From: a virus
Length of the DNA stretch: 64,000 bases
UHGV virus genome: UHGV-0036582
Strand: one strand, 5' to 3'
The notes under the pieces were generated by a model. The model did no database searches, was not told the DNA's origin, and saw only the letters and a program-made list of their open reading frames with translations. The position numbers and the translations under genes are program-made. Shown in pieces: positions 9,208-56,132 of this stretch (positions are counted from its first letter, which is position 1; each line of letters opens with the position of its first letter).

Positions 9208-9270
9208 CTTAATAAGACATGCCCAGACCTAATTAAACAACCCAGAAAACAAGTTGGTTAGAAAATGCAG

Positions 9271-9286
9271 TAAACAAGTTGTTTTA
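9271..9286. promoter_or_regulatory. palindromic operator-like site TAAACAAGTTGTTTTA upstream of terS
   Basis: AAACAA-G-TTGTTT dyad; imperfect second copy at 9245-9259; further palindrome GAGCGC-ATGGAC-GCGCTC at 9287-9304. Confidence 0.45.
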
Positions 9287-31499: not shown

Positions 31500-31592
31500 T
31501 GGTGGAAAAAAAATTTTATATCGGTAAAAATAGGTAAGTACTTACTAAATGGCGGGCAAGGATAGCCCGCCAAATCAAGGAGCATATTCAAC

Positions 31593-34500
31593 ATGTGGTA
31601 CAGGGAAGGTACTATCACATTTACACAGGGTAGCAATACTCTGGTTGGGGCAGGGACAGCCTGGAACGTAACAGCTAATGGTGTGTTGCCGGGGATGATC
31701 GTCATTGGCCCCGACAACAAGCTGTATGAGATCAAGCGCGTAACCAGTGATACGAACATTGTTCTCTCAGAACCTTATACCGGCGAAACTCAGTCTGAAG
31801 TTCCGTGCCGAATCATTACGACCTATGAAGGCGACTTAACACAGTTTAGCGCGCGCTTTACTGCACTAATGTCGCGTATGTCGGCTGATTCCAAGTCCAT
31901 GCGCAGTTGGTTGACTGCTCTGGATGAGGTGACAATCGAGCGTGAAGACGGTACAGAAGTGACCGTTAAGCCGCTAATGCAGATCGTCAACGAGCACAAC
32001 GAAAACGTTGAGTGGTATAAAAATAACACTGACGCGATTAATGCTGCTGGCGACAAAGCTCGTGAGGCGGCGGCCAGTGCTGCCGCAGCAGCAGAAAGCG
32101 CCAATACCGCTGGAGAAAAAGCCTCTCAAGCGTCTCAAAGTGCATCCGCTGCGGCATCTTCACAAAGTGCTGCAAGTGCGAGCGCAACTGCTGCGAAAAA
32201 ATCTGAAACGAACGCACAAGCCGCAAAAGAAGCGGCAGCAGAATCAGCATCTGTAGCGTCGGCCAAAGCATCGGAGGCAGCAACATCTGCGTCCAGTGCC
32301 TCTGCATCTAAGGATGCAGCCAAAGTATCAGAGACTAACGCTTCATCGAGCGCAAACGCGGCAGCATCATCGGCAACAGAAGCTGCAAATTCGTCTAAGG
32401 CAGCAAAAACGTCAGAGACAAACGCAAAAGCATCTGAAACGGCCGCCGGGCAGAGTGCAAAGTCTGCAAACAGTTCGAAATCTGCGGCAGAAGCCTCAGC
32501 AAGCGCAGCCTCAGCAAGCGCGGATAGTGCTTCATCAAGTGCAACAGCGGCAGGAAAATCTGCGGAAAGTGCATCGTCATCAGCGACAACAGCTACCACA
32601 AAAGCGACAGAGGCGACGAGTCAGGCTACAGCTGCTAAAAATTCAGCATCGGCAGCAAAAGCCTCTGAAACAAATGCAAAGACTTCAGAAGACAATGCTG
32701 CTTCCTCTAAGGCGGCAGCTGCTGAATCTGCAAGTTCTGCGTCTGCATCAGCTACCTCGGCATCCGCTTCAAAAGATGAGGCGACTAAACAGGCGTCAGC
32801 AGCGAAGGGCAGTGCCACGACGGCATCCACAAAGGCAACAGAGGCGGCAGGCAGTGCGACGGCTGCATCTCAGAGCAAAACTGCTGCCGAATCTGCTGCG
32901 ACCCGTGCAGAAGCAGCCGCAGATCGTGCTGAAGAGATTGCCGGTGCAGTTGCGATGGAAGACGCAACCCTTACAACTAAAGGTGTTGTGAAACTTAGTA
33001 GTGCGACAGATAGCACCAGTGAATCGCTGGCTGCAACGCCAAAGGCAGTTAAAGCAGCCAATGACAATGCGAATAGTAGGGTGCCATCTAACCGAAAAAT
33101 TAACGGGAAAGCACTGACTGCGGATATCACATTAACGCCGAAAGATATTGGCACTTTAAATTCAGTAACGATGTCTTTCTCTGGCGGGGCTGGGTGGTTC
33201 AAACTGGCTACGGTTACCATGCCACAAGCGAGTTCCATCGTTTACATTGCATTGATTGGTGGCGCTGGTTACAACGTCGGCTCCCCACAGCAGGCAGGCA
33301 TTTCAGAACTGGTTTTACGAGCAGGCAATGGAAACCCCAAAGGGATTACCGGAGCTTTGTGGAAGCGTACAGCCGTCGGATTAACGAATTTCGCCTGGAT
33401 CAACACATCCGGCGATAAATATGATATTTACGTTGAGATTGGCAATTATGCGACGAGTGTAAATATCCATTGGGACTGTACTGCAAATGCGTCAGTTTCT
33501 GTTTATACCTCGCCAACATATTCAGCGAGTAAGCCTTCCGGCGTTACCGATGGCGTTGTTTATACGGTGTATAGCTCACACCAGAAACCTACACCATCAG
33601 ATATTGGAGCACTGCCAACAACGGGAGGGACTATTTCAGGTCCGTTGGCTGTTACTGGTGGGATCACCGGAACATTAAATGGCAATGCAAGTACCGCTAC
33701 GAAATTGCAGACTGCAAGAACTATCGGCGGCGTGGCCTTCGATGGCTCTGCGAACATAAATTTGCCTGGTGTAAACACGGCAGGTAATCAGAGCACTACT
33801 GGTAATGCCGCAACCGCTACAAAACTTCAAACGGCAAGAACGATTGGTGGCGTTTCATTTAACGGAACTGCCAACATCGACTTGCCCGGAGTTAACAAAA
33901 CTGGCAACCAAAGCACCACAGGTAATGCTGCTACAGCTACTAAATTGCAGACTGCAAGAACCATCGGTGGTGTTAGCTTTGATGGCACTGCGAATATTAA
34001 TTTGCCAGGTGTAAATACGGCAGGTAATCAGAGCACTACAGGTAACGCGGCCACAGCGACCAAGTTGCAAACTGCTAGAACTATTAACGGGGTGTCGTTT
34101 AACGGCTCTGCGAATATTTCAATACCAACAATTACGTCCAGAGGACGCGTTACTGCGCTCACCGGTACAACACAAGGTGCTGCGACTGGATTGCAGATGT
34201 ACGAGGCATATAACAATGGCTACCCTTCGACTTACGGGAATGTGCTTCATCTTAAGGGCGCAACGGCCGTTGGTGAAGGTGAGTTGTTCATAGGTTGGAG
34301 CGGTACAAGTGGCGCTCATGCACCTGTACATGTACGTTCGCGACGAGATACGGATACATCCAGTTGGTCTGAATGGGCGCAAGTTTATACGTCCAAAGAC
34401 TCAATTCCAGGTGTTAATGCCACCGGTAATCAGAACACTACTGGCAACGCGGCAACCGCCACCAAATTGCAGACAGCGAGAAGAATTAACAATGTGGCTT

Positions 34501-35471
34501 TTGACGGCACGAAAGATATTACTCTAACGCCTGGTAATATCGGCGCTGCTGCTTCGTCTCAGGCATGGCTGAATACTGGCGATTCAGGACAATCATTATC
34601 CACATCGTCATTTATTACGCTGCTGCAAAATAACGGCGCATTCAATCAGCGTACATGGATTGCTCGCTGTTCGTGGGCTTATGCTAATAACGCCTCAATA
34701 CCGGATAGCGAAACAAAATGCGGCACTATTCCGCTTGCTGGCGCACTGATTGAAATAACCAGCTTTGGCATGACTAACTACACAATTAGGATCACCACCG
34801 CAACGACTACCAGCGTTTCCGGTGCAAAAGTAAACGCCGAATTTATTTACGTTTACAATGGGGATGGTTATTCGCCAGGCTGGCGCAGGCAGTACAATAC
34901 TAAAAACCTGCCGACGCCACTTGAGATAGGAACTTACAGCAAATCGGAGATTGACAATTTAAATAGGAATTTTCTCACATCGTCAAGACTTGAAGCTGGC
35001 TCGTTAGATGCAAACTTCCAGACGTTAACTTGTTATTATTTGCAAATATTCGACATTCAGACAACAACCGATAGTCCTAACATGTTCGTAAGTCCGATTG
35101 CTGGCTACAACATGGTTTTTCGTTCGACTTCATCCCGTCGATACAAGACGGATATCGAGTCTTTAGAGAACAAGTACGCGGACGAGCTGTTGAAACTTCG
35201 TCCTGTATGGTATCGCTCGACTTGTGAAAGGGACAGAAAGGACTGGGGACATTATGGCCTTATTGCAGAAGAAGTCGGAGAGATAGCACCGCAATATGTT
35301 CACTGGCGTCCTCTTACAGACGAAGATGATCCAAGTATAGCGTCTGATAATGGGATGGTTGCTGAAGGCGTGATGTATGACCGTCTGGTTGTTCCACTCA
35401 TTCACCATATTCAAAAACTGACAAAAAGGGTTGAGGAGCTTGAAGCGAAGTTAAATTCACCTGAAGAATAA
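31593..35471 (+). CDS. tail fibre protein with C-terminal S74-type intramolecular chaperone
   Basis: Ala/Ser-rich low-complexity region; five tandem ~40-aa repeats GNQSTTGNAATATKLQTARTIGGVSFDGTANI; C-terminal RRYKTDIESLENKYADELLKLRPVWYR...GLIAEEV motif block. Confidence 0.8.
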   Translation: MWYREGTITFTQGSNTLVGAGTAWNVTANGVLPGMIVIGPDNKLYEIKRVTSDTNIVLSEPYTGETQSEVPCRIITTYEGDLTQFSARFTALMSRMSADSKSMRSWLTALDEVTIEREDGTEVTVKPLMQIVNEHNENVEWYKNNTDAINAAGDKAREAAASAAAAAESANTAGEKASQASQSASAAASSQSAASASATAAKKSETNAQAAKEAAAESASVASAKASEAATSASSASASKDAAKVSETNASSSANAAASSATEAANSSKAAKTSETNAKASETAAGQSAKSANSSKSAAEASASAASASADSASSSATAAGKSAESASSSATTATTKATEATSQATAAKNSASAAKASETNAKTSEDNAASSKAAAAESASSASASATSASASKDEATKQASAAKGSATTASTKATEAAGSATAASQSKTAAESAATRAEAAADRAEEIAGAVAMEDATLTTKGVVKLSSATDSTSESLAATPKAVKAANDNANSRVPSNRKINGKALTADITLTPKDIGTLNSVTMSFSGGAGWFKLATVTMPQASSIVYIALIGGAGYNVGSPQQAGISELVLRAGNGNPKGITGALWKRTAVGLTNFAWINTSGDKYDIYVEIGNYATSVNIHWDCTANASVSVYTSPTYSASKPSGVTDGVVYTVYSSHQKPTPSDIGALPTTGGTISGPLAVTGGITGTLNGNASTATKLQTARTIGGVAFDGSANINLPGVNTAGNQSTTGNAATATKLQTARTIGGVSFNGTANIDLPGVNKTGNQSTTGNAATATKLQTARTIGGVSFDGTANINLPGVNTAGNQSTTGNAATATKLQTARTINGVSFNGSANISIPTITSRGRVTALTGTTQGAATGLQMYEAYNNGYPSTYGNVLHLKGATAVGEGELFIGWSGTSGAHAPVHVRSRRDTDTSSWSEWAQVYTSKDSIPGVNATGNQNTTGNAATATKLQTARRINNVAFDGTKDITLTPGNIGAAASSQAWLNTGDSGQSLSTSSFITLLQNNGAFNQRTWIARCSWAYANNASIPDSETKCGTIPLAGALIEITSFGMTNYTIRITTATTTSVSGAKVNAEFIYVYNGDGYSPGWRRQYNTKNLPTPLEIGTYSKSEIDNLNRNFLTSSRLEAGSLDANFQTLTCYYLQIFDIQTTTDSPNMFVSPIAGYNMVFRSTSSRRYKTDIESLENKYADELLKLRPVWYRSTCERDRKDWGHYGLIAEEVGEIAPQYVHWRPLTDEDDPSIASDNGMVAEGVMYDRLVVPLIHHIQKLTKRVEELEAKLNSPEE

Positions 35472-37217: not shown

Positions 37218-37616
37218 ATGCATACTGCACTTAACGCATCTCGTTCTATTCAGACGATAAGAGACTGTACCAAGATGATCGCATCGGTTCCGTTGCGGCA
37301 TTGGAATGACTCGCTCCAAATTCGTGAAATGAACAAACCGGGTATGCTTAAGGATCAGCGTTTCATCGTTAACCTTAAAAGTGACGTTGAAGAAGGCAAG
37401 TTTACCATCAAATTGTTTGCAGAAATGATGGTGCTCAACAATCGGTTACGTTTTCTTGTTAAGCCAGAAAAACAGTTTCCCGATGTTGTGCGTTGTGAAC
37501 AGGATGCTTTCTATGAGATTGAAAGCAAAATAGCTAAATTTATCAAAGATAAATACCGCGTAGATGTTAAAATAGCGAAACTGGATTCATCTACGGATAT
37601 GCGGCTTGCTAACTAA
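37218..37616 (+). CDS. hypothetical protein
   Basis: 132-aa ORF. Confidence 0.4.
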   Translation: MHTALNASRSIQTIRDCTKMIASVPLRHWNDSLQIREMNKPGMLKDQRFIVNLKSDVEEGKFTIKLFAEMMVLNNRLRFLVKPEKQFPDVVRCEQDAFYEIESKIAKFIKDKYRVDVKIAKLDSSTDMRLAN

Positions 37617-38393
37617 ATGTCACCATCATTCATAGCAGAGTATTCAAAAGTACTGTCTGGTTTCCCTGAATGTGAAGCAAGAGAGAAAATCAGAGTTGGC
37701 TACATGGTTAACTCTGATTTTTCTGTTTTACGGCTCACAGAGTGGTCCTTGATCGGGTCTAATTATGATTACTGTTTGACAGTGTCATTTGTAGGCGACC
37801 CTGATGCAGATTGGCTTCAAGAACATGCAATGGATCTTGACGAGCAGGGGTATTCAGAAGCAGAGATAGTTCATAGTGTTCGTGAATTAGTTGGTGATGA
37901 GCAAGAAGATGATGACGGCATTCAGATCGCCAGGTTCGTCTACAAACGATTCCAGTTTCGCTCACAAAAAGGCTCTCATCTTGGGGTCCAGATTAAAGGG
38001 GCATTTGTAACCCCTTCAAAGGAACAAAAGGGACTTGCTAGAAGAGTTTACAATTTCCTTCTCAATTGGCATGACCATGTGGTATGTGATGACCATCAGA
38101 CGGTTTACGGTGCCAGAATTTGGGCGGTCGGTATGCTTCTGGTCGGGCGTGTCCAAATCTATGACAATTTAAACAAAGAATTTATAGATGTCCTTGTTGA
38201 AGGTGGTATTGGGCAGAATGGCGTCAAACCGTGGGACGCGCTGCTATTGAGCAGCGAGGCCCAGTTACGTCACTGGAACCCTATGGCCGTCAGCATAGAC
38301 CCATCTAGTCAGATTCTCGCCATCATCTCCAAAGAAGACCGTCACATTGAAGTGGGCGTTACAACTTTTGACGCCAGGTCTACCAACCATTAA
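37617..38393 (+). CDS. hypothetical protein
   Basis: 258-aa ORF followed by strong terminator. Confidence 0.45.
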   Translation: MSPSFIAEYSKVLSGFPECEAREKIRVGYMVNSDFSVLRLTEWSLIGSNYDYCLTVSFVGDPDADWLQEHAMDLDEQGYSEAEIVHSVRELVGDEQEDDDGIQIARFVYKRFQFRSQKGSHLGVQIKGAFVTPSKEQKGLARRVYNFLLNWHDHVVCDDHQTVYGARIWAVGMLLVGRVQIYDNLNKEFIDVLVEGGIGQNGVKPWDALLLSSEAQLRHWNPMAVSIDPSSQILAIISKEDRHIEVGVTTFDARSTNH

Positions 38394-38398
38394 TTCCT

Positions 38399-38421
38399 AA
38401 ACCCGCTTCGGCGGGTTTTTG
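38399..38421 (+). terminator. intrinsic terminator
   Basis: AAACCCGC-TTCG-GCGGGT followed by TTTT. Confidence 0.85.
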
Positions 38422-38499
38422 ATGTTTCAGTTTCTTTATCAACCTACTAATTAACCTTTACACCGCAGCCGTAGGCATTTAGGCTATATCACATATAAG

Positions 38500-38513
38500 A
38501 AAACAAGTTGTTT
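38500..38513. promoter_or_regulatory. palindromic operator-like site AAAACAAGTTGTTT upstream of parA
   Basis: Same 13-bp dyad as at 9273 and 41433. Confidence 0.45.
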
Positions 38514-38548
38514 CAGACGATAATTATATACGCAAAGGGAACTCTCCA

Positions 38549-39217
38549 ATGACCAAGATCTTTGTGGTTGGCGGCACAAAGGGCGGGCCTGGCAAATCCA
38601 CCGTTGCCCAGCAAATTGCCGTTTGCCTGAAAGTCAAAAAGAAGAAGAAGGTTTATATCACTGATATAGATATTCAGCGCACGACAACAAGCTGGTGTGA
38701 AGACCGTCGACAGAACGAAGACCTTGAGCTGATTCCTTTTGCATACGTTCAGGATGACATCATTAAGCACCTAAAATCGCTTCAGGGTAGAGCTGAGTTT
38801 GTAGTGGTAGATGCTGGTGGCTTTGACTCCGAAATTCAGCGACAAGCGATGCTGATGGCCGACGTTATCATTATCCCGCTGCGTCCTAAGCGTCGTGATT
38901 TGAAATCTTTACGTGACATCGATCCTATTATCGACAATGTTCGTAATGTAAACGATAAAGTGAAGGTCCGCGCGGTCATGAACCAGTGCCCGGCTTTGCC
39001 ATCACAAGTGTCTCGCATTTTGGCGGCTAAAGAGATTGTCGAGACGTTTGGCATCGAGTCTGCGCCAGTCAATTTATATAACCGCAACGTCTATGATGAT
39101 GCGGAAGAGTCTGGTCGTTCTATCTTTGAAATGACCGGTAGCGAGCGCGACAAAAAGGCGGAAGCCGAGTTTGAAGAATTTGTAGATTATCTGTTGAGTC
39201 TGGAGGAAGAAGAATAA
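38549..39217 (+). CDS. parA: ParA-family partition ATPase
   Basis: Deviant Walker A GGTKGGPGKST, Walker B VVVDAGG; 222 aa (small type Ib ParA size). Confidence 0.8.
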   Translation: MTKIFVVGGTKGGPGKSTVAQQIAVCLKVKKKKKVYITDIDIQRTTTSWCEDRRQNEDLELIPFAYVQDDIIKHLKSLQGRAEFVVVDAGGFDSEIQRQAMLMADVIIIPLRPKRRDLKSLRDIDPIIDNVRNVNDKVKVRAVMNQCPALPSQVSRILAAKEIVETFGIESAPVNLYNRNVYDDAEESGRSIFEMTGSERDKKAEAEFEEFVDYLLSLEEEE

Positions 39218-39576
39218 TGTCCATGAAAATGGGTGACCTAGCAAAGCGCAAAGAGTCTGATGCACCGGCTAAGAACACAACTCCTTTGCGCCAACCAGTC
39301 AGACCACAGGGACGCCCGACTCGTGGCAAAGAGAAAATTAAAAGCCGCACAATGTCACTGGAGGACGAATACTTCGAACTGCTGGAGATGATGAAGTTCA
39401 TCCCTCGCTTCGAGAAGTTCACTCGTTCTGACGTGATTCGAGCAGCCATTTTCCATCTGGCAGAGAAGTCACCGCAGGAAATCGAGGACATCGTGAAATT
39501 GAATGAGGCGATCACCGCTGCCGATGTCACGATGCGTACCGATGAAATCAAACGAGAGTTGATGAAGAAAGGTTAA
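39217..39576 (+). CDS. small partition DNA-binding partner (ParG/ribbon-helix-helix-like)
   Basis: 119 aa, basic N-terminal tail, translationally coupled to parA (stop/start overlap). Confidence 0.45.
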   Translation: MSMKMGDLAKRKESDAPAKNTTPLRQPVRPQGRPTRGKEKIKSRTMSLEDEYFELLEMMKFIPRFEKFTRSDVIRAAIFHLAEKSPQEIEDIVKLNEAITAADVTMRTDEIKRELMKKG

Positions 39577-39580
39577 AAAT

Positions 39581-39613
39581 CATGCATTGGCGTAATGTAC
39601 GCGCCAATGCATG
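39581..39613. repeat. perfect 12-bp inverted repeat CATGCATTGGCG / CGCCAATGCATG with 9-nt loop
   Basis: Between convergent par operon and GIY-YIG gene; no T-tract; possible factor-dependent terminator or centromere-like site. Confidence 0.5.
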
Positions 39614-39628
39614 AGTACAATGTCAGTT

Positions 39629-40396
39629 TTATGCCGCGCTAACACTATGTTCAGTCCTAACCACTCCAACCTTCACAAAAGGGCTACCGTAGCTTGGTGG
39701 CTTCTTGATTAATTTGCCAACATACAGTTTTCTAATATGCTCATCGGCTATTCTGCCAACAAATTCATAACGTTTTGTGTCGGGGCCAAGAGCTATATCC
39801 CTTGTAAAGTACTGCTGAGAACCGGCTTTGACCCAGCATTCAATCTGATAAACTTCCATTATCAGCCCACCATATGTAGCGTAGGCATATTTGAGATTCT
39901 CGTCTCTTGGAACCTTTGCCCATACGCCACGCGTAGCTTCATATAATGCCAGAGCGGACATTCCTGACTTGTAGGTGCTGTTTAGCAGGAAGGCAAGACC
40001 GGCGTGCTCAGGAGCAATTTCAGTTTCCTCTTGCAGCACTAAGTGATGGTAGGCGTCCAGTGATATTCTGCCCATCATGGAACCACTTCCTCGTACCTTA
40101 TTCGTAAGCTCTCCGACCCCCATAAGGTCGATGCATGTCGCCTCAACAAGTTTGGCTGTGGTTTCATCCATACCATGACGAAGTATATCTATGCCTAATT
40201 TTTTATTAGCCAAAAGTTCTTTGATCCGCATGGATTTGGGAGAGTCATCGGGATACTTGATGTGATCGAGACAACGAGTCGATTTGCCTTTTCCTATGTA
40301 AAACGGTCTTTTCATCTTGTCTTCTGTATCATAGAGACAGTAAACATAGTATTTAGCCTTATCCAATGATCTCGCGTATACCGATAAATCGTCCAT
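39629..40396 (-). CDS. GIY-YIG family endonuclease (homing-endonuclease-like)
   Basis: N-terminus YVYCLYD-(10 aa)-FYIGKGKSTRCLDH matches GIY...YIG...R..H spacing. Confidence 0.6.
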   Translation of the reverse strand: MDDLSVYARSLDKAKYYVYCLYDTEDKMKRPFYIGKGKSTRCLDHIKYPDDSPKSMRIKELLANKKLGIDILRHGMDETTAKLVEATCIDLMGVGELTNKVRGSGSMMGRISLDAYHHLVLQEETEIAPEHAGLAFLLNSTYKSGMSALALYEATRGVWAKVPRDENLKYAYATYGGLIMEVYQIECWVKAGSQQYFTRDIALGPDTKRYEFVGRIADEHIRKLYVGKLIKKPPSYGSPFVKVGVVRTEHSVSAA

Positions 40397-40507
40397 TATT
40401 GCATCTCTTAGCTACTGACTAATGCGTTCTATTTTACACATAAGTTTTTAATCAATTTAACAGGCTCAAAGTGTAGAGCTTCTGGGCGTCTAAGACGACA
40501 AGTTATG

Positions 40508-41421: not shown

Positions 41422-41431
41422 CTAATACTAG

Positions 41432-41445
41432 AAAACAATTTGTTT
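41432..41445. promoter_or_regulatory. palindromic operator-like site AAAACAATTTGTTT upstream of DnaB-like gene
   Basis: AAACAA-T-TTGTTT dyad 20 nt upstream of ATG 41465. Confidence 0.45.
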
Positions 41446-47918: not shown

Positions 47919-48130
47919 TCGTATTAAGTAAACGGGAGAAAGAAACGCTTCATGAAATAAGTAAGTGGCCGGAGTTCCCTGAGTACTGGAAGCCTAAAAC
48001 GCGAGCTAAGTTAGAGCGTTTAGGGTTGGTTGCAAACGTTTCTGAAACGTGGTGCTCGGCCAACTACCAGTTAACTGATAAAGGGAAATTATTGCTACAG
48101 CAATTAGTAGAATCAGGAGCCTTTAAATGA
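47915..48130 (+). CDS. hypothetical small protein
   Basis: 71-aa ORF coupled to ligase gene. Confidence 0.35.
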   Translation: MIVLSKREKETLHEISKWPEFPEYWKPKTRAKLERLGLVANVSETWCSANYQLTDKGKLLLQQLVESGAFK

Positions 48131-48275
48131 TTCCATACATCTCATTAGCTTTTATGGCTGGCTTCCTTATCGGCTTCGGCATCTGTCGTGATTTGATTAA
48201 GCAGGAACTTAAAACCAAAACACTGTGCATCGGGAAGCGTGTGTATCGGGTAGTTCATGAAACAAAGGTGAGAAA

Positions 48276-49079: not shown

Positions 49080-49342
49080 AGACGGGATTGTTGTGTAGGT
49101 TTAACCACTGTTGCCATTGGTGCCTGTTTTCACAACAAATGATTCCATACATCACATTGTATAAATTACAAAGTAGGTGCTGTCCTCAGAAACATCATCT
49201 ACTTAAAGATTTTGCCTTCTATTGAGCGAAGTCGAAAACGTCTGGCACTAACGGAAAGTGCAAGTAGCGGTGCGTTTCCTGGCAGAAACTAACACCGCCG
49301 CGATTGGCACTGTTGAGTAATAAATACTGGCAGTGCTGAATT

Positions 49343-49417
49343 GATGGTGTAGCTCAGCGGTAGAGCAGTTGGCTGTTAACCAACTGGTCGGTGGTTCGAA
49401 TCCACCCACCATCGCCA
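49343..49417 (+). tRNA. tRNA-Asn (anticodon GTT)
   Basis: Cloverleaf folded by hand: acceptor GATGGTG/CACCATC, D-stem GCTC/GAGC, anticodon stem GTTGG/CCAAC with loop CTGTTAA, T-arm GGTGG-TTCGAAT-CCACC, 3' GCCA. Confidence 0.85.
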
Positions 49418-49422
49418 ATTTA

Positions 49423-49509
49423 GGGGAGTTAGTCCGTAGGGGCAGCGGGGTAGACTGTAAATCTACTGTCATTGCGACTCGGGTGGTTCGACTCCATCAC
49501 TCCCCACCA
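49423..49509 (+). tRNA. tRNA-Tyr (anticodon GTA), long variable arm
   Basis: Acceptor GGGGAGT/ACTCCCC, anticodon stem GTAGA/TCTAC with loop CTGTAAA, long variable arm, T-arm GGTGG-TTCGACT-CCATC, 3' ACCA; D-arm pairing irregular. Confidence 0.6.
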
Positions 49510-49513
49510 AATT

Positions 49514-49589
49514 GCCGGTTTAGCTCAGTTGGTAGAGCGCCTGCCTTGTAAGCAGGATGTCAGCGGTTCGAGTCCGCTAACCGGCACCA
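49514..49589 (+). tRNA. tRNA-Thr (anticodon TGT)
   Basis: Acceptor GCCGGTT/AACCGGC, D-stem GCTC/GAGC, anticodon stem CCTGC/GCAGG with loop CTTGTAA, T-arm AGCGG-TTCGAGT-CCGCT, 3' ACCA. Confidence 0.85.
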
Positions 49590-49813
49590 ATACAACGATA
49601 AGATCATTACGGTTAATCGTCGTTCATGTGCACAATGACTGGTCGAAAGGTAGTGATCTTACCGTTGTGGTGGATTCGCAGACTGATGCGATAGCTTTCT
49701 TGGATGTTAGGGAAATGCGGCCGCAAATCTTCCCTTTCGCGAGCGGTGATCGTCCGTAGTCCTAATTGGCTGCACCGTATGCCGGAGATTCAGTACCGGC
49801 CACCACAACGGCC

Positions 49814-49900
49814 GGAGAGTAGGGAGCATGGTGCTCAAGCGGTCTTGAAAACCGTCCCATTGCGCAAGCGATGATGGTTCGATTCCATTACTCTCCGCCA
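49814..49900 (+). tRNA. tRNA-Ser (anticodon TGA), long variable arm
   Basis: Acceptor GGAGAGT/ACTCTCC, D-stem GAGC/GCTC, anticodon loop CTTGAAA, long variable arm, T-loop TTCGATT, 3' GCCA. Confidence 0.7.
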
Positions 49901-49902
49901 GA

Positions 49903-49980
49903 CACAGCGTTGAGCGGTTTGGCCTTTTAATCAACTCGATTAAGACTCCGCTAACATAAACCAGACCGCTCAACGCTGTG
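49903..49980. repeat. 16-bp perfect inverted repeat directly after tRNA-Ser
   Basis: CACAGCGTTGAGCGGT vs ACCGCTCAACGCTGTG with 46-nt spacer; arms resemble those of the 48957/49064 repeat. Confidence 0.6.
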
Positions 49981-50054
49981 ATAGACAATTACGGCAGACG
50001 TTCTTAACCATAGCTTGCTAACATCCTAGCAACACTTTTTTCAGCGCAAAATTC

Positions 50055-50078
50055 AAAGGGGCTTCGGCCCCTTTTTTG
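50055..50078. terminator. bidirectional intrinsic terminator
   Basis: AAA-GGGGC-TTCG-GCCCC-TTTTTT; ends both the tRNA transcript and the convergent minus-strand gene. Confidence 0.85.
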
Positions 50079-50092
50079 TTGAACAGTGCAAT

Positions 50093-51355
50093 TTACTTTG
50101 CATAGTCGCCCAATTTTAATATTTCGCGCTTATATTCATTAACCATGCTACTGGATTCAGTATAAATTCGATTTAAAAGATTATCGTTATCTTTATTTTC
50201 ATTTATCTTAATTAGTGCTAATTTATATTCATAGTCATCAAATGCCACAATTAAATGGTGGCCTGGGATTATATCTTCGTCACTCTTAAAGTATATATCT
50301 TCAAGTATGTAATCTAGTTGATTAGATTTTCTTTTCTCGATGTAATCTTCAGCCATAGCTATTACATCATTCCTGTCATTTAACCTGTTTTTTTCGGAAG
50401 GCACATCTTCGTAATGTTGCACGATTGAACAACCAATAAGGCGTGGGATGTAAACGTCAAAATGAGTAACTCTATCATTCGCGGTTTTAAGTAGTTCCTC
50501 AAAGTAGTTTCTTACATGTAAAGGCAACTTCTCAAAGTAATCATTAATTATAGGAGAACAAGGAGTTTTATAATTCATAAGAACCGACGGTACGAGCTTT
50601 GGGTGTCGAAACATCCAGTCCCTTTTAACGTCCGATGGAACATAATAACTTTTAATGATATTATCAAAATAATTTATCATTCGAGATTTGAATATTTTGT
50701 TGAATCTAAGGTTTATGAATGTATCCAGATAAGGCATATTTGAATAAGCATCATCAAAAAATATTTCATCATTGAAAAAATCATATTTATTCAATAAACA
50801 ACACAGTTTTTCCGAATTAATATGTTCACAATAATCGATTTTTAATCCAAAGATAGCAATGATCAACTTCATCTGAGGTGGGATTTTAAAAATTAATTGT
50901 GACACATACGCTCTTTTTTCCTTGAGACATTCCCCATCAATATAAAATGAACCATCCACATACTCAAATATATTAATAATATGCTTCACATACTGTATTA
51001 CCTCATGCTGTCTTACCAATGGATAATATAGTCTATGTAACTCATCGCTGTTTAAATTAATTTTGTGTTTATCGATAATTTGTTTTGCAAGAAGACATAA
51101 CTCATCATGTTGATTTAATAAGGAATCAAACCATTGTTTAAATGCACTCTTTCGCATTTCGAACAATGATTCAGTTGTTAATTGAAGGGCTGAAAAAGCT
51201 GCTTTTGCACTTTTTCTCGCTTCGTAGGCATTCCATGCTGTTGCTATAAAAGCAAATGCTGTAGCCAATGTTCCAACAGTTTGACCATTTAAAACAACCC
51301 AATCCCAAAAAATGACGGTGAGCAGTAGTATAATAATGAAAATTAAAAAAGGCAT
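50093..51355 (-). CDS. AT-rich moron: membrane-anchored protein of unknown function (candidate exclusion/abortive-infection factor)
   Basis: 420 aa; N-terminal hydrophobic segments (FLIFIIILLLTVIFWDWVV, VGTLATAFAFIATAW); hand-counted GC about 20-28 percent in sampled lines versus about 50 percent in structural genes; opposite strand to flanking genes. Confidence 0.6.
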   Translation of the reverse strand: MPFLIFIIILLLTVIFWDWVVLNGQTVGTLATAFAFIATAWNAYEARKSAKAAFSALQLTTESLFEMRKSAFKQWFDSLLNQHDELCLLAKQIIDKHKINLNSDELHRLYYPLVRQHEVIQYVKHIINIFEYVDGSFYIDGECLKEKRAYVSQLIFKIPPQMKLIIAIFGLKIDYCEHINSEKLCCLLNKYDFFNDEIFFDDAYSNMPYLDTFINLRFNKIFKSRMINYFDNIIKSYYVPSDVKRDWMFRHPKLVPSVLMNYKTPCSPIINDYFEKLPLHVRNYFEELLKTANDRVTHFDVYIPRLIGCSIVQHYEDVPSEKNRLNDRNDVIAMAEDYIEKRKSNQLDYILEDIYFKSDEDIIPGHHLIVAFDDYEYKLALIKINENKDNDNLLNRIYTESSSMVNEYKREILKLGDYAK

Positions 51356-51529
51356 GTATGTATTTCACTCTACTAACTATAAAATATTAGGCTAATGTTA
51401 ACCAAACAATGCCTTAATTAATAGATTGATCGAGGCTTTAATAGCTTTATAATGCAGACTGTAAAGATAAGTATGCACATACCTATCTTCTTTGTAAGTA
51501 AAGTTGCATATCAATTCTATGAGGTAACA

Positions 51530-51775
51530 ATGACGATCACTATCTACGGACGAGATAACTGCTCATACTGCAAACGTGCGGTCGAGCTGGCGAAGCAACT
51601 AAAGGGACATGGCTACGGTGATTATGAGTACATCGACATCACCACTGCCGGTATCGACAAGGAAAAACTAAGTGAAATTGTTGGTAAACCGGTAGAGACT
51701 ATCCCCCAAGTGCTGATCGATGGCCAACCGATTGGCGGATACACAGAACTGGCTGCATACGTCAGCACCCTCTGA
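51530..51775 (+). CDS. glutaredoxin (NrdC-like)
   Basis: ITIYGRDNCSYCKRA CxxC active site; C-terminal PQVLIDGQPIGGY; ATG 51530 after GAGGTAA RBS. Confidence 0.75.
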   Translation: MTITIYGRDNCSYCKRAVELAKQLKGHGYGDYEYIDITTAGIDKEKLSEIVGKPVETIPQVLIDGQPIGGYTELAAYVSTL

Positions 51776-51780
51776 TTTTA

Positions 51781-51805
51781 ACGGCTCACAGGAGCCGTTT
51801 TTATT
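51781..51805 (+). terminator. intrinsic terminator after glutaredoxin gene
   Basis: ACGGCTC-ACAG-GAGCCGT followed by TTTTATT. Confidence 0.8.
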
Positions 51806-51854
51806 CCCACCAAACTCACTCCCGTTTCCCTTAAAATTCAAAAAACAACGTCAA

Positions 51855-51887
51855 AATGATTCCATACCTACTATGTATGGAATCATT
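51855..51887. promoter_or_regulatory. 12-bp perfect inverted repeat upstream of recombinase gene
   Basis: AATGATTCCATA-cctactatg-TATGGAATCATT; left arm is the third copy of the AAATGATTCCATAC repeat. Confidence 0.5.
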
Positions 51888-51985
51888 GCTGAAAATGAGT
51901 TACTTTTACTCTTGATCCTATAAGAATCTATGCCTAATATACTGTTTACTTATACAGTGCATCGGCGTAACTCGGTGATTGTCAT

Positions 51986-53089
51986 ATGAAAAATAGCTTT
52001 GACAGAGCACGCGCTGCGGAGAACACCTCAAAAGAGGCGATAGAGTATCTCGAAAGAGCATCTCAAATGCAGGCCGTTATGATCTCCCAGGTCAGCAATG
52101 ACATGAGATTCTCGGACGCATTCATGTTATTCACTCGCTTATCTCTGCTGATAACCAGACGTCGGCCAGAGATCGCTGTTCATTGTATTTTGATACATGT
52201 TTTGCCGCACCTTGCCGATGTAAAAGTAAGTGACATTAATAGGTTCATGGTGAACCAACTGGTCAACCCACTAATACTGGATGGCAAAATTGTTATGGGC
52301 CGCCGCGTTTTCTCTCTGATGAAGCAGTTCCTTAGCTGGTGCGCCTTCCAGGGGATGATAGACGTGTCACCGTTAAACGATATGTCACTTAACAATGTTG
52401 CCGGTGGCGCAAAGCCCACACCTCGCGAGCGGAAGCTGACCGACGCAGAGGTATGGGTGTTCTGGAATATATGGGACTACTTCAATGTGTGCGCTGGTAC
52501 AAAATGGGCGGCCAGGCTATGTCTTGTATCCGCAAGACGACCTGACGAAGTACTGCGGGCTAAAAAAAGTGAGTTCAACCTCCAGCGTGGGGTTTGGAAT
52601 CAAGGCAAGAGAAACAAATCAGCCCGTGAGCATTCTCTGCCTTTAAGCACATTAATGCGCACATGCATTGAAGAGTTATTCGAATATGGTAAAGGCAGCC
52701 AGTGGCTTGTGCCTTCGAATAAAAAAATCGGGAATGATCTTCCGATGTCTAAAGTGGCAATAGCCCAGGCATTACGCCGTATCCTGGAACGACCAGAACT
52801 GATGGAGCTTGAGCCATTTACACCCCGAGATTTGCGTCGTACTGCGCGTAGTTACTTCCCAGCATTAGGCATAAGCCAGGAGGTATCACGCAAAATCATG
52901 AACCACAGTCTTGAGGGGATAGATCGGGTCTACGACCGGCACGATTATATGGACGAGATGCGAGACGCCTTAGAAAGTTTCTCGACGTACATCGCATCAA
53001 TCGTAGAGCAACCGGATTTAGACGAAATTGACCACAAATTCAAGGGAGATCGTCTATCAACAGAGCTTATTCGTGTAAATTTTTCATAG
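51986..53089 (+). CDS. tyrosine recombinase / phage integrase family
   Basis: C-terminal catalytic block PRDLRRTARS ... MNHS ... VYDRHDY (Arg/His/Tyr positions of the tyrosine recombinase fold); 367 aa. Confidence 0.7.
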   Translation: MKNSFDRARAAENTSKEAIEYLERASQMQAVMISQVSNDMRFSDAFMLFTRLSLLITRRRPEIAVHCILIHVLPHLADVKVSDINRFMVNQLVNPLILDGKIVMGRRVFSLMKQFLSWCAFQGMIDVSPLNDMSLNNVAGGAKPTPRERKLTDAEVWVFWNIWDYFNVCAGTKWAARLCLVSARRPDEVLRAKKSEFNLQRGVWNQGKRNKSAREHSLPLSTLMRTCIEELFEYGKGSQWLVPSNKKIGNDLPMSKVAIAQALRRILERPELMELEPFTPRDLRRTARSYFPALGISQEVSRKIMNHSLEGIDRVYDRHDYMDEMRDALESFSTYIASIVEQPDLDEIDHKFKGDRLSTELIRVNFS

Positions 53090-53470
53090 AGACTTTATGG
53101 CCTCAACAACCTTTTGTGATGCGCCTTTCTCTTTACCGAATCGCTCGTTATATGCAGCAAGAACCTGTTTTTCGTCCTCGTTAAGAGGCGCAGTGCCTTC
53201 TTTGTATAAAAATGCTGCGAGTTCAGGTTGGCGTTCTTCCAGCACCATCATCATAAGACGACTTGGCTCAATACCCAGCGCCAGCGCCAGCGGACGAACC
53301 TTATCGATAGGCAAAGGAATTTTGCCACTTTTAATTAAAGAAAGGTTGTTGGCATTTTTATAACCAATAAGTCTAGCTATTTGGGCCTGACTCATAGGTG
53401 AGGATTCAATCAGCCCTGCGATAAAAGCAGCATAGCGACTTTCTATAAATTCAATCTTGTTGTCAGACAT
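53084..53470 (-). CDS. XRE-family HTH transcriptional regulator (repressor-like)
   Basis: SQAQIARLIGYKNANNLSLIKSGK helix-turn-helix; no peptidase domain; convergent with recombinase, divergent from downstream operon. Confidence 0.7.
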   Translation of the reverse strand: MSDNKIEFIESRYAAFIAGLIESSPMSQAQIARLIGYKNANNLSLIKSGKIPLPIDKVRPLALALGIEPSRLMMMVLEERQPELAAFLYKEGTAPLNEDEKQVLAAYNERFGKEKGASQKVVEAIKSL

Positions 53471-53501
53471 TGTTACAACCTTTGCGCGTTTAATTCTCTC
53501 T

Positions 53502-53515
53502 GGTAAGTGCTTACC
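53502..53515. promoter_or_regulatory. GGTAAG...CTTACC palindrome in divergent promoter region
   Basis: GGTAAGTGCTTACC; further GGTAAG/CTTACC half-sites at about 53617 and 53685. Confidence 0.45.
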
Positions 53516-53721
53516 GATATTACATCAAAGGTTAGGGTTGTAAAGCTATTATCATTTTTTTCGGCAGGCACTTGTAAGACCGAGCAAAGGCCCACGCATG
53601 GAGAAAAACTAGCCCAAAATAGGTAAGAAAATTAACTTGCATCTGATATGGATGTATTCAGTATTGATATAATTTTTAGTAGTATTCCTTACCATAGTAT
53701 AAGTTAGAATGGATTGATTGA

Positions 53722-53934
53722 ATGAACACCACTATTTCCAGCCTAATCGCTCTTGAGATCGGACACGTACAAAAATTAGCTGATGAATGTGTAGCTGACA
53801 TTCTCACCGATCTACCGAATGAGCAGATTCAGGTTGGTGTGAATGACACAACTGGCTTTATATTCGAACTTAACAACAAACGCTTCACGCTTCTCAATAC
53901 CGGCTCCGGGTCTTTAGCCGTCAGAATCTGTTAA
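53722..53934 (+). CDS. hypothetical small protein
   Basis: 70-aa ORF divergent from regulator gene. Confidence 0.35.
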   Translation: MNTTISSLIALEIGHVQKLADECVADILTDLPNEQIQVGVNDTTGFIFELNNKRFTLLNTGSGSLAVRIC

Positions 53935-54032
53935 CCCCTCTTCTCCCTGCGCGAATGGCTTAGTTCCCTGTTCGCGCAGTGCTACATTAAACATACTAGT
54001 AAATAATTTGTTTTCATAACAAAGGATTAGCC

Positions 54033-56132
54033 ATGTCTAAAAAACGTTCCATCAAAGAGGTTCAGGACTTCCGTGACAGTGTAAAACGAGTAGTCGCTCT
54101 CCTTTCAGGTAAAAACATCCCTGTTGCAGAACGAGGGGACGACGCTTATGTACGCTATAACGATGATGGAGAGCCAATTCTCGTAAACATCCCATCAATC
54201 CCGGATAACGCAACACCAGCATTGATGAATGCTGTGCGCGGATTTCTCGATCATGAGGTTGCTCACATTTTGTTTACCGATATTCATGTGTCCAACAAAA
54301 TGAGAGAAAAAGGACGCGTTCCTTCCTGGTCGCTATGGAATGCCTTAGAAGACGTGTTTATCGAGCGAAAAATGGGGCAGGTCTTTAACGGAACAAGACG
54401 TAATCTGATGGCAACTCAGCGCCTTATAATCGAAAAAGTCTTTAAACCAAAGGCTTCAGAGGCTATTACTTATTGTGGCAAAGATCAGCGCGCGCTTTTT
54501 CTAAACTTCTTTCTCTGTCCGGTTGTAAGAGCCTGGGATGGCCAAGCACCGTTCGTAGATTTCATGGATGAATACTGGCCTGTCATTGAGAAACCAATTT
54601 CATTATTAAAAGAACATGGTATCGATGTGGCCGTGCGTAACATGTCTTGCACCGGGGATTGTTTAAAGGTGGCTGCGACCATCGCTAAGATCCTCAAAGA
54701 CACAGAAAGTGAAAGCAAAGGTAAGGAGTCAGCTCCGGGAAAAACTTCCGATCCTTCAGACGCTGATCACGCGGATTCCTCTGGAGAAGGCGATGAAGAT
54801 CACAAGACACCCGAATCGTTAGATAATCACATATCTATTAAAGAAAATTCAAAAGGTAAGCACAAATACGATAATAACAACAGTGATAATTCAGATAACT
54901 CTGAATCATCAGAAACAATATTCGATGATACAGAAAATGATAAAGAGGTATCAGATTCTGGTGCTTCTGATAACGCGGCGTCAGAAGCATTGACCACTGA
55001 CCACGAAAAAAGAAAATCGACAGAAGACGGCTCTTCAGACATTCCAACTCCGTCAAAAATGAGTCTGGAAGAGGCTTTAGAGGAGTTGGATAGCATGGAA
55101 GATGAAGTCGGAGGCATGACAGAAGATGCGCTATCCGAAACGATTAAAAGCGAGTTAACAGAAAGCTCGAAAAGCGAATACAGGCCATACAATCGCTCAT
55201 ACGACTTCATCGGCTCGATTGATCAGGCAGAAGCCCATATCAAACGGCTTATTAAAACATTCTCCGATATTGATTTAGGTGGATATCCAATCAGCCGTTA
55301 TCGCATCGTTCCTGAAGGCAACCAACTCTTCGACAAATATATTGAAAAGCACCTTTCGTCAGGTGTTTCGTCGACGCTGGCAAAAGACCTGGAACGTGCA
55401 ATAGCAAGCAGAAACAGAGTTCAGTTTATACCTGGCCAGCGTCGGGGGCGCATTCATGGTTCAAGTATCTACAGATTAACAATGAATGATGATCGCGTGT
55501 TTCGTAAAAAAGAAGAATCTAAAGCCGTTAACGCCTGTGTTCAACAAGTGATTGATTTATCAGGTTCAATGAGTGGTATAACGATACAATTGGCTCTTGC
55601 AAGTGCATATACCATCGCCGATGCCCTTGATCGAATAAATGTTCCCAACATTATCACCGGCTTCACTACATTTGGTAGTCATATGGCGGCAGGAGAACTT
55701 AAGGCTGTCAAGTATGAGTTCTCTCGCTTTGAATCTTTAATGCTACCTATCATCAAAAATTGGAATGAAAAGGTAAATTCTCGCGAAGTTCGCTCACGTA
55801 TGGGGTGCGTAGGCTACACATTCCCACTTCTTAATAACGTGGATGGTGAAAGCATAGCCAGCCTTGCATCGTTATTTTCCGGTCGCATGGAGGACAGGAA
55901 GATCATGCTTGTTCTGAGTGATGGCGCGCCGTGGGCTGTTGGGAGAGGTTTTGACGCTCATTTGCGTTCGGTTGCGAAGCAAATTGAAACGCAGACTGAT
56001 ATTGATTTGATGGCAATTGGCATCATGACTGACGCACCGGAGAGATTTTACTCAAATCATGCCCTGGTAACGAGCGTTGATAGTCTTGGTTCATCTGTAG
56101 TTACTGAACTATCTCGTATCATTTTAAAGTGA
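54033..56132 (+). CDS. CobT-like von Willebrand factor A (VWA) domain protein
   Basis: C-terminal MIDAS motif VIDLSGSMSG; long acidic Ser/Asp/Glu-rich insert at about 54700-55100. Confidence 0.7.
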   Translation: MSKKRSIKEVQDFRDSVKRVVALLSGKNIPVAERGDDAYVRYNDDGEPILVNIPSIPDNATPALMNAVRGFLDHEVAHILFTDIHVSNKMREKGRVPSWSLWNALEDVFIERKMGQVFNGTRRNLMATQRLIIEKVFKPKASEAITYCGKDQRALFLNFFLCPVVRAWDGQAPFVDFMDEYWPVIEKPISLLKEHGIDVAVRNMSCTGDCLKVAATIAKILKDTESESKGKESAPGKTSDPSDADHADSSGEGDEDHKTPESLDNHISIKENSKGKHKYDNNNSDNSDNSESSETIFDDTENDKEVSDSGASDNAASEALTTDHEKRKSTEDGSSDIPTPSKMSLEEALEELDSMEDEVGGMTEDALSETIKSELTESSKSEYRPYNRSYDFIGSIDQAEAHIKRLIKTFSDIDLGGYPISRYRIVPEGNQLFDKYIEKHLSSGVSSTLAKDLERAIASRNRVQFIPGQRRGRIHGSSIYRLTMNDDRVFRKKEESKAVNACVQQVIDLSGSMSGITIQLALASAYTIADALDRINVPNIITGFTTFGSHMAAGELKAVKYEFSRFESLMLPIIKNWNEKVNSREVRSRMGCVGYTFPLLNNVDGESIASLASLFSGRMEDRKIMLVLSDGAPWAVGRGFDAHLRSVAKQIETQTDIDLMAIGIMTDAPERFYSNHALVTSVDSLGSSVVTELSRIILK

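Follow-up and report, generated by a model that had tools for sequence, protein, structure and literature searches.

The stretch of DNA analysed here, 64,000 nucleotides (nt) of UHGV virus genome UHGV-0036582 (the window in what follows), is part of a phage-plasmid of the SSU5 supergroup (pSLy3-type), an element of a known kind. The phage is read as a temperate siphovirus, with a low-copy circular plasmid as its prophage form. Approximately 44 kb of the genome lie outside this 64-kb window. The feature under study is a two-gene partition (par) module formed by parA and the gene of a small partner protein. Taking all parts together, it is held to be highly probable that this SSU5-supergroup phage-plasmid carries a type Ib-like partition cassette at 38443–39577, that the hairpin directly downstream of the cassette is the terminator of a cargo gene only, and that the tyrosine recombinase encoded at 51986–53089 acts on a lox-like site and most likely resolves plasmid multimers.

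The Element and Its Plasmid State

The window is assigned to this known kind of phage-plasmid because of its 96–98% identity to members and its pSLy3-collinear gene order. The par region is 96–98% identical at the DNA level to Escherichia phages PhiR41_1, CMS-2020a, and Cyrano, the last of which is the same element as pLF82 and is 98% identical to the window in this region. The identity over the par region is 97% for plasmid pSLy3, 85% for Salmonella phage SSU5 and about 79% for Klebsiella phage-plasmids. The closest full-length match in E. coli is pSLy3, with identical gene order across 34 kb, and this plasmid is the namesake of one of the groups within the SSU5 supergroup of phage-plasmids (Pfeifer et al., 2021, PMC7969092). 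The recombinase module is likewise 96–98% DNA-identical in relatives of the supergroup (pSLy3, PhiR41_1, Cyrano/pLF82). The common gene order is tail fibre, lysis genes, two hypothetical genes, parA and partner gene, GIY-YIG gene, helicase, primase, ligase, tRNAs, recombinase and XRE regulator, CobT-like gene, and dnaE. The rep gene (RepA/RepB, an IncFIB-type initiator in such elements) is found approximately 34 kb downstream of par in pJN2-26, pMT1, and SSU5, and the equivalent position lies past the end of the window.

The plasmid state was judged on relatives, not on the UHGV-0036582 molecule, in a survey of 5,426 complete E. coli genomes. The par cassette was found at 265 places in 264 genomes, that is in about 5% of complete E. 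coli genomes, and all 265 places are on plasmids and none on a chromosome. The module of recombinase and XRE regulator is present at 254 places in 252 genomes and is again exclusively plasmid-borne (254/254, 0 chromosomal). In PLSDB, 775 plasmids carry the par cassette, including 345 of Klebsiella, 241 of Escherichia, 92 of Enterobacter and 49 of Salmonella. Most of them (741/775) are classed as non-mobilizable, and the size of those listed is for the most part about 105–115 kb. SSU5-type elements have been reported as exclusively extrachromosomal (PMC9600943). Cyrano/pLF82 is a plasmid with 5.5 copies per cell that produces siphovirus particles (Misson et al., 2023, PMC9928086). Ciprofloxacin induces it 39-fold, and in the lysogen its partner gene and XRE gene are transcribed 9-fold and 10-fold, respectively, above the prophage background (PMC9928086). 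A possible plasmid-prophage lifestyle had been proposed in the original prediction, made from the DNA of the window alone, on the grounds that a partition module, a tyrosine recombinase and an XRE repressor coexist. The counts for both modules and the publication of Cyrano as a 5.5-copy, ciprofloxacin-inducible plasmid bear it out; the proposal was correct and describes something already known.

Boundaries of the Partition Cassette

The par genes stand between lysis genes upstream and helicase and primase genes downstream, as had been claimed. The limits of the cassette were defined by aligning ten relatives from E. coli, Salmonella, Enterobacter, Cronobacter, and Klebsiella. Similarity starts abruptly at 38443 and stops at the stop codon of the partner gene (39577). 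Since similarity ends sharply on both sides and the flanking sequence is unrelated in most relatives, the par cassette is a self-contained module with a cargo hot spot on either side. The left flank (37218–38442) contains in relatives either two hypothetical genes, as in the window, or a GNAT (KacT-type) toxin with a DUF1778 antitoxin. The right flank (39578–40400) contains a GIY-YIG nuclease, DUF2971 or other genes. The breakpoints in the flanks match the edges of the cassette, and one plasmid, RHB41-E2-C05, is a mosaic.

The left edge of the variable flank is marked by a predicted intrinsic terminator at 38399–38418 (plus strand), found in a terminator scan as an 8-bp stem followed by a T run, and assigned to the preceding gene (37617–38393). 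Direct repeats that could serve as iterons were sought within 38300–39750, and only short pairs at chance level were found.

The ParA ATPase

The parA gene (38549–39217, plus strand) encodes a protein of 222 amino acids (aa) predicted as a partition ATPase with a deviant Walker A motif. Its N-terminus is MTKIFVVGGTKGGPGKST, and the motif KGGPGKS occupies residues 11–17, inside GGTKGGPGKST. No second ParA-like open reading frame (ORF) and no second deviant Walker A motif is present in the 64-kb window. Pfam matches are to MipZ, AAA_31, and CbiA. The NCBIfam model ParA_partition is matched at 1.9e-33 with 116 bits, which is under its curated cut-off of 180 bits, and PHROG 164 (ParA-like partition protein) at 4e-51. 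The closest solved structures are ParF of TP228 (4dzz) and a 214-aa chain deposited as "ParA" (5u1g), both with E=1.2e-10 and near full length; the alignment with ParF covers residues 9–199. By these sequence features ParA is type Ib-like, because it is small and without an N-terminal DNA-binding domain. The original prediction of a type-Ib-like ParA with the motif GGTKGGPGKST and a coupled partner thus agrees with the ORF, the motif and the homology to ParF.

The Partner Protein

The second gene (39217–39576, plus strand) encodes the ParA partner of 119 aa, a putative centromere-binding protein composed of an N-terminal tail (residues 1–47), a probable ribbon-helix-helix (RHH) core (about 42–82) and two extra helices. 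The ATG of this gene and the stop codon of parA share bases (TAATG), and because of this overlap the two genes are translationally coupled. The isoelectric point (pI) of the protein is 9.56, with residues 1–47 being very basic (pI 11.4) and the remainder acidic. A small, basic and coupled partner had been foreseen, and its length, pI and TAATG overlap confirm this. The partner gene follows parA directly in 12 of 12 relatives inspected.

The partner forms a tiny orphan family. It gave 25 matches among 5.8e9 clusters, and a full HMMER scan of 1.8e9 representative proteins returned only 18 partner proteins, all of the same type. Across members with identities down to 26%, the invariant residues are L8, which belongs to an N-terminal G-(D/G)-L-x-K, and R44, S47, E49, R70, D72, and R75. 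The basic N-terminal tail contains a conserved GDLAK motif. The segment SRTMSLEDEY...(16 aa)...TRSDVIRAAI reads as the strand, helix 1 and the start of helix 2 of an RHH protein. A weak match was obtained to the RHH model aCcr1 of NCBIfam (2e-4), and hhalign of the partner against CopG and against a small RHH alignment placed it in the correct register with P of about 0.017. An AlphaFold2 model of the partner monomer (pLDDT 70) has residues 1–47 disordered and four helices; the other AlphaFold2 model has a mean pLDDT of 64. The fold is probably ribbon-helix-helix, the computed support being weak but consistent. A Foldseek search of the PDB with the partner model gave a best E of 3.6, phmmer and profile searches of the PDB gave no match or noise only, and Pfam gave nothing for 12 members of the family. 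An hhalign comparison with ParG also gave nothing.

In the GenBank record of Cyrano (OV696614.1) the gene corresponding to window positions 39217–39576, CYRAN_29, is annotated as "RelE/ParE putative toxin," and it is counted among the toxins in the Cyrano paper.

If that label were right, the partner would be a RelE/ParE-type toxin, and the two genes would form an addiction module rather than a partition system. Apart from the annotation, the transcription of the partner gene in the lysogen is in line with such a role. Against it, no ParE/RelE match was found with Pfam in any of the 12 family members even at E<=10, and the PDB gave no match. The N-terminus of the partner is basic and disordered, its sequence carries an RHH-like signature, and the gene directly before it encodes a ParF-like Walker ATPase, not an antitoxin. 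A toxin is therefore very improbable, and the RelE/ParE label is probably a misannotation.

With a partition function, the cassette would be expected to work as type Ib systems do. The partner would bind repeated sites in the block upstream of parA, which would act as both operator and centromere, while dimers of ParA and ATP would coat the nucleoid. The disordered basic N-terminal tail of the partner would stimulate the ATPase activity of ParA, and plasmid copies would be moved apart before division.

The Conserved Block Upstream of parA

The block of 91 nt at 38443–38533 (plus strand) is non-coding and contains the putative par promoter and operator. Its identity among relatives is 87–92%, and the third-codon positions of parA in the same relatives are 51–63% identical. 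Positions 38474–38503 are 97% invariant across 10 elements. The block is under strong purifying selection as a cis-acting element, as judged by comparative sequence analysis, because its identity far exceeds that of the third-codon positions. Within it, the short repeats TAGGC/CCTAC occur at 38443–38447, 38472–38476, and 38480–38484; these are 5-nt repeats only. Sigma-70-like hexamers were recognised by eye, under the threshold of the scan tool, at 38457–38462 (TTTACA), 38480–38485 (TAGGCT), and 38494–38499 (TATAAG). No iteron array could be defined in the block, and no parH-like array of tetramer boxes is visible there. By its position, 38443–38533 is the best candidate for the centromere (parC/parS) and operator to which the partner would bind.

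The 3′ end of the block is occupied by a palindromic motif, AGAAAACAAGTTGTTT (AAACAA-N-TTGTTT), at 38498–38513 (plus strand). It is one copy of a dispersed motif, AGAAAACAAnTTGTTT, found also at 128–143, 9244–9259, 9269–9284, 41430–41445, and 53998–54013. The copies stand 19–40 nt 5′ of start codons, namely those of the ORF at 164, the first gene of the structural block (9325), parA, the helicase gene, and the CobT-like gene. The motif is enriched, with 15 matches against 3.3 +/- 2.0 in shuffles, and is conserved in Klebsiella, SSU5, and pMT1, in the last of these at two promoters. A further short element, ATTAAaCA, is seen a few bases 5′ of four of the copies. In divergent par variants of Klebsiella, pC714_2 and pKSB1_7G.2 (about 69% parA identity), the sequence upstream of approximately 38490 differs while AGAAAACAAGTTGTTT is kept. 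The layout agrees with a site specific to par and, 3′ of it, one of more general use.

The distribution of the motif raises the question of which protein recognises it. According to one alternative, the partner is a global regulator and the dispersed AGAAAACAAnTTGTTT sites double as several centromeres, similar to the sites of omega in pSM19035 or of KorB in RK2. The motif does occur at the par promoter and before at least four other operons, with significant enrichment and conservation across lineages. Three observations count against this alternative and make it improbable. First, pMT1 keeps the motif at two promoters, yet Yersinia is absent among the genera listed for 797 plasmids with the partner and for 775 plasmids with the par cassette. 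Second, the partition gene of pMT1 is a different one, of ParB type. Third, it is the par-specific conserved sequence upstream of the motif that changes in divergent par variants, and not AGAAAACAAnTTGTTT. On these sequence comparisons the partner is not an obligatory binder of AGAAAACAAnTTGTTT, because pMT1 retains the motif while no Yersinia plasmid is among the partner matches listed. The XRE regulator was also considered as the binder of AGAAAACAAnTTGTTT and found no support; the promoter of its gene has a different conserved palindrome, GGTAAGTGCTTACC.

The Hairpin and the GIY-YIG Cargo Gene

Outside the par cassette, at 39580–39614, is a hairpin of the 13-9-13 type, with perfect 13-nt arms at 39580–39592 and 39602–39614 around a 9-nt loop. 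Its computed folding energy is -21 to -23.5 kcal/mol (z -4.8 to -5.3), a value that none of 200 shuffles reached, and only on the minus strand does UUUUU follow the stem. The hairpin is found exclusively where a convergent LEM-3-like GIY-YIG gene is present. It is absent from Cyrano, SSU5, pHCM2, and all Klebsiella, Enterobacter, and Cronobacter relatives that keep parA and the partner gene, and in these the matches stop at the partner stop codon. The mosaic plasmid RHB41-E2-C05 (Ec_RHB41) has SSU5-like par genes (83.6%) joined to a right flank that includes the hairpin and is 93.7% identical to the window.

The hairpin is predicted to be the intrinsic terminator of the convergent GIY-YIG gene, because it co-travels with this gene and has its U-run on the minus strand, and it probably also stops par transcripts. 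A perfect 12-bp inverted repeat had been noted before at 39581–39613 as a candidate for a centromere or a terminator. The repeat is real, with arms that extend to 13 nt (39580–39614), and of the two proposed functions that of a terminator is upheld. The hairpin was rejected as a centromere, being missing from relatives that keep the par genes and travelling with the GIY-YIG gene.

The gene in question, at 39629–40396 on the minus strand, is identified as that of a LEM-3-like GIY-YIG nuclease by Pfam PF22945 (5.5e-7) and by the PGAP name in relatives. It is variable cargo, replaced by DUF2971 or hypothetical genes in SSU5, Cyrano, Klebsiella, Enterobacter, Cronobacter, and pHCM2. The loop of the hairpin (39593–39601) has the core AATGTAC in the window and in RHB41-E2-C05, and the reverse complement, GTACATT, in PhiR41_1 and pSLy3. 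Read from these sequences, the spacer between the arms was flipped during the divergence of close relatives.

The Tyrosine Recombinase and a Candidate Lox-Like Site

The gene at 51986–53089 (plus strand) encodes a protein of 367 aa of the phage-integrase family, proposed here as the enzyme of multimer resolution. The call of a tyrosine recombinase at these positions is supported by Pfam (Phage_integrase, 1.5e-9), and PHROG 1 (integrase) is matched at 5e-46. No PDB chain was matched at E<=0.01, hence no similarity to Cre is detectable. Inspection of the translation by eye finds ...RVY... near the C-terminus. In the region of box II (residues about 290–330), the sequence RDLRRT was noted by eye, with arginine in place of the usual first histidine. 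The recombinase is encoded in 933 PLSDB plasmids, including those of the Yersinia pMT1 and Salmonella pHCM2 types.

About 100 nt 5′ of the recombinase gene, at 51855–51887, is a near-perfect palindrome, AATGATTCCATAC-CTACTAT-GTATGGAATCATT, which is a candidate recombination site of the lox-like 13-7-13 type. Its arms are invariant and its 7-nt spacer is lineage-specific, with five variants across 11 elements: CTACTAT in the window, TTGGTAG in Klebsiella pJN2-26, CTATTAA in Y. pestis pMT1, and also CTTACAA and TTGGAAG. An exact-pattern scan with the invariant arms, over one genome per species for 185,579 species, found the full site in 7 stretches only, on contigs of 12–169 kb from Kluyvera, Chimaeribacter, Buttiauxella, and Y. 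pestis, and on no chromosome-sized contig. The site is always located 45–130 nt from a homologue of the recombinase (56–100% protein identity). In E. coli, the 37-nt site is present once per plasmid in 252 genomes, the same number as carry the recombinase gene, and no match to it was found on E. coli chromosomes even at E<=10. Invariant arms, a free asymmetric spacer, single copy and linkage to the gene are the sequence hallmarks of a simple tyrosine-recombinase site of the loxP or FRT type.

Multimer resolution rather than integration is the most economical and most likely function of the recombinase, because the simple lox-like site is on a replicon that was never found integrated. Acting on the single site at 51855–51887, the enzyme would break multimers of the plasmid down into monomers, in the manner of Cre/loxP in P1, and would complement partition. 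For the earlier suggestion that it may be a resolvase rather than an integrase, the support is circumstantial and positive: the lox-like site is always beside the gene, and neither the site nor the gene has a chromosomal copy in E. coli.

The opposite assignment, a true integrase that integrates the element via 51855–51887, with par serving only an episomal phase, has several facts in its favour. These weigh against a resolvase. The closest sequences outside the group are integrases of phages (such as those of Gifsy-1 and the mEp phages; 22–33% identity), and PHROG 1 and an NCBIfam integrase domain point in the same direction. In some hosts the module is in replicons of 160–550 kb, which are possible cointegrates, and an integrated remnant of an SSU5-like repB-parA plasmid has been reported in S. 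Agona. Against these facts stand the 0 of 254 chromosomal places in E. coli, the lack of a chromosomal match to the 37-nt site, and the confinement of the full site to contigs of 12–169 kb, always beside the gene, among the 185,579 species representatives. Searches for inverted repeats and half-sites around the site showed no repeats of the arm type, and the elements are called exclusively extrachromosomal in the literature (PMC9600943). A prophage integrated at an attB and sharing a core with attP was not found; the gene and at least about 20 nt of the site are absent from E. coli chromosomes, and a core under about 20 nt would escape. Integration as the main function is accordingly rated as unlikely, and multimer resolution is retained.

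Three isolated half-sites, ATGATTCCATAC(ATC), are identical to a site arm. The first, at 48127–48138 (extended to 48141; plus strand), overlaps the start of a 50-aa ORF. The second, at 49139–49150 (extended to 49153; plus strand), is non-coding and approximately 200 nt upstream of the tRNA cluster, and the third, at 57897–57908 (extended 57894–57908; minus strand), is antisense inside dnaE. With the extended arm ATGATTCCATACATC they are exact repeats, all oriented toward 51855–51887 from distances of 2.7–6 kb. They are conserved in pSLy3, Klebsiella pJN2-26, pMT1, and SSU5, and no further half-sites occur in the rest of the window or in 50 kb of pJN2-26.

The tRNA cluster at 49343–49900 comprises Asn-GTT, Tyr-GTA, Thr-TGT, and Ser-TGA. 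Its content varies among relatives: Cyrano has Asn, Thr, and Ser, and SSU5 and pJN2-26 have Asn only.

The XRE Regulator, the LexA Box and Induction

The recombinase gene is followed by a convergent gene at 53084–53470 (minus strand), the 3′ end of which overlaps it by 6 nt. The product of 128 aa is predicted as an XRE-type helix-turn-helix (HTH) regulator from a weak Pfam match to HTH_19 and a match to PHROG 8 (transcriptional regulator, 6.6e-12); weak as they are, these matches substantiate the convergent XRE regulator of the original prediction. No peptidase domain was detected in the protein with Pfam. The homologue in Cyrano has been treated as the master repressor (PMC9928086), and the XRE protein is a probable lysogeny repressor. 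The region 49343–54033 of the window was compared with SSU5 (NC_018843.1, 9526–9762), where tRNA-Asn is directly followed by the CobT-like gene and the whole recombinase-XRE segment is missing. The segment is present in plasmids of the pHCM2, pMT1, pSLy3, and Klebsiella types. The absence of the segment from SSU5 fits the role of the XRE protein as lysogeny repressor and an origin of SSU5 as a deletion derivative.

A promoter for the XRE gene was found by the promoter scan on the minus strand (TTTACA-16-TAATAT, 53544–53517). Together with the palindrome GGTAAGTGCTTACC at 53502–53515 it forms a block (53502–53544) that is conserved in Cyrano, Klebsiella, and pMT1. The palindrome has no other exact copy in the window and is likely to be an autoregulatory operator of the XRE gene. 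A copy with one mismatch, GGTAAGTACTTACT, is located at 31533–31546, just 5′ of an ORF of 1292 aa (31593–35471) whose homologue is annotated as a tail-fibre gene.

The putative promoter of the recombinase gene (51912–51959, plus strand, with the LexA box) consists of TTGATC at 51912–51917, a 17-nt spacer and TAATAT at 51935–51940; it has 8 of 12 matches and was recognised by eye, under the threshold of the scan tool. Its -10 hexamer is overlapped by TACTGTTTACTTATACAGTG (51940–51959), a LexA box with one mismatch and the sole match in the window to TACTGT-N8-ACAGTA at <=2 mismatches. One LexA-like match per 64 kb is the chance expectation. Relatives in Klebsiella, Yersinia, and Kluyvera have CTGT-N8-ACAG at the equivalent position with N8 changed, and those in Chimaeribacter and Buttiauxella do not have it. 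The box hints at SOS control of the recombinase.

It is possible, and yet doubtful, that the LexA-controlled promoter is chiefly a lytic switch rather than a device of multimer resolution. SOS-induced transcription through the recombinase gene into the convergent XRE gene would lower the level of repressor and induce the phage, with recombination being secondary or co-induced. The only good LexA box of the window lies over the -10 of this promoter and is retained, N8 varying, in the lineages of E. coli, Klebsiella, Yersinia, and Kluyvera, which speaks for such a switch, as does the 6-nt overlap between the 3′ ends of the two genes. Ciprofloxacin induces Cyrano 39-fold even though no peptidase domain that would allow RecA-stimulated self-cleavage was detected in the XRE protein. 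Furthermore, SSU5, which was isolated as a phage and is used in phage cocktails, is without both genes. On the other side, the approximately 44 kb outside the window could hold a LexA-controlled antirepressor, as in N15, and the relatives in Chimaeribacter and Buttiauxella are without the box. With one LexA-like match per 64 kb expected by chance, the argument for a switch depends on conservation. Because Cyrano is SOS-inducible, the phage could plausibly be induced by transcription that starts at the LexA-controlled recombinase promoter and runs into the repressor gene; multimer resolution remains the preferred function of the recombinase itself.

The most novel interpretation joins all these parts and is offered tentatively, as the less probable outcome when taken as a whole. 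In it, the recombinase module would be a hitherto undescribed, SOS-wired lox-like system specific to the SSU5 supergroup. A LexA-repressed promoter would drive a divergent member of the integrase family, acting on the 13-7-13 site, as well as antisense transcription into the repressor gene, and would so couple damage sensing, lytic induction and multimer resolution, with the half-sites as accessory or orienting elements. The same interpretation would make the ParA partner family a new family of centromere-binding proteins and would have the par promoter share an operator with the phage replication and structural operons.

Significance

The feature under study is an ordinary and already recognised partition module of a common phage-plasmid family, the plasmid life of which is established and holds nothing new. 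SSU5-like phage-plasmids, some of which bear resistance genes, are often found in clinical E. coli, Klebsiella, Enterobacter, Salmonella Typhi (pHCM2), and Yersinia pestis (pMT1). Their maintenance machinery appears to be uncharacterised in the literature searched. Nothing specific was found there on SSU5 with LexA or multimer resolution, nor any description of the candidate centromere block, of the lox-like site and its lineage-specific spacers, or of the LexA box that relatives conserve.

The analysis provides four handles on this machinery: the exact boundaries of par, the constrained block upstream of it, a 33-bp candidate recombination site, and a LexA box that possibly explains the sensing of DNA damage. 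Possible uses include the curing or destabilising of such plasmids and typing by the spacers of the recombination site. Two annotations could be corrected, that of the partner as "RelE/ParE toxin" and that of the recombinase as "integrase."

Comparison with Known Systems

Within the SSU5 supergroup, pSLy3, Cyrano/pLF82, PhiR41_1, Salmonella pHCM2, and SSU5 represent the same element as the window, with a collinear order from the lysis genes to dnaE. The differences are in cargo and in one module. Left of par, Cyrano has a KacT-type toxin-antitoxin pair, whereas the window has two hypothetical genes. Right of par, relatives have other genes where the window has the GIY-YIG gene. Phage SSU5 is without the recombinase-XRE module that is present in the window.

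Among partition systems, the closest parallel is ParF-ParG-parH of TP228. Both have a small ATPase with a deviant Walker A motif, ParF being one of the two closest solved structures, a small partner gene directly downstream, and a candidate cis site upstream of the ATPase gene. The partner resembles ParG in having a flexible N-terminal tail and a probable RHH core. Unlike ParG, to which it has no detectable sequence similarity, it has 119 rather than 76 aa and two extra C-terminal helices, and the array of tetramer boxes of parH is not visible here. The delta-omega system of pSM19035 also combines a Walker ATPase with an RHH regulator that has sites in promoters, and is the source of the idea of dispersed sites that are both operators and centromeres. 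In contrast to omega, the motif of the window persists in pMT1, where the partner gene was not detected, so that an omega-like global role is unsupported.

With P1, which has ParA-ParB-parS and Cre/loxP, the element shares the combination of active partition and a tyrosine recombinase with two 13-bp inverted arms around an asymmetric spacer near the gene. P1, in contrast to the cassette of the window, has a ParA of type Ia and an HTH protein as ParB. Compared with Cre/loxP, the spacer has 7 bp rather than 8, the promoter has a LexA box, and there are three conserved isolated half-sites; the likeness is one of site architecture, not of homology. SOS control through a LexA box is known for another tyrosine recombinase, the integron integrase IntI. 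The LexA-controlled antirepressor of N15 is a precedent for SOS induction of a phage-plasmid (PMC11652158). In comparison with both IntI and N15, the recombinase, the site and the context are different in the SSU5-type element, where LexA binding to the box is a prediction.

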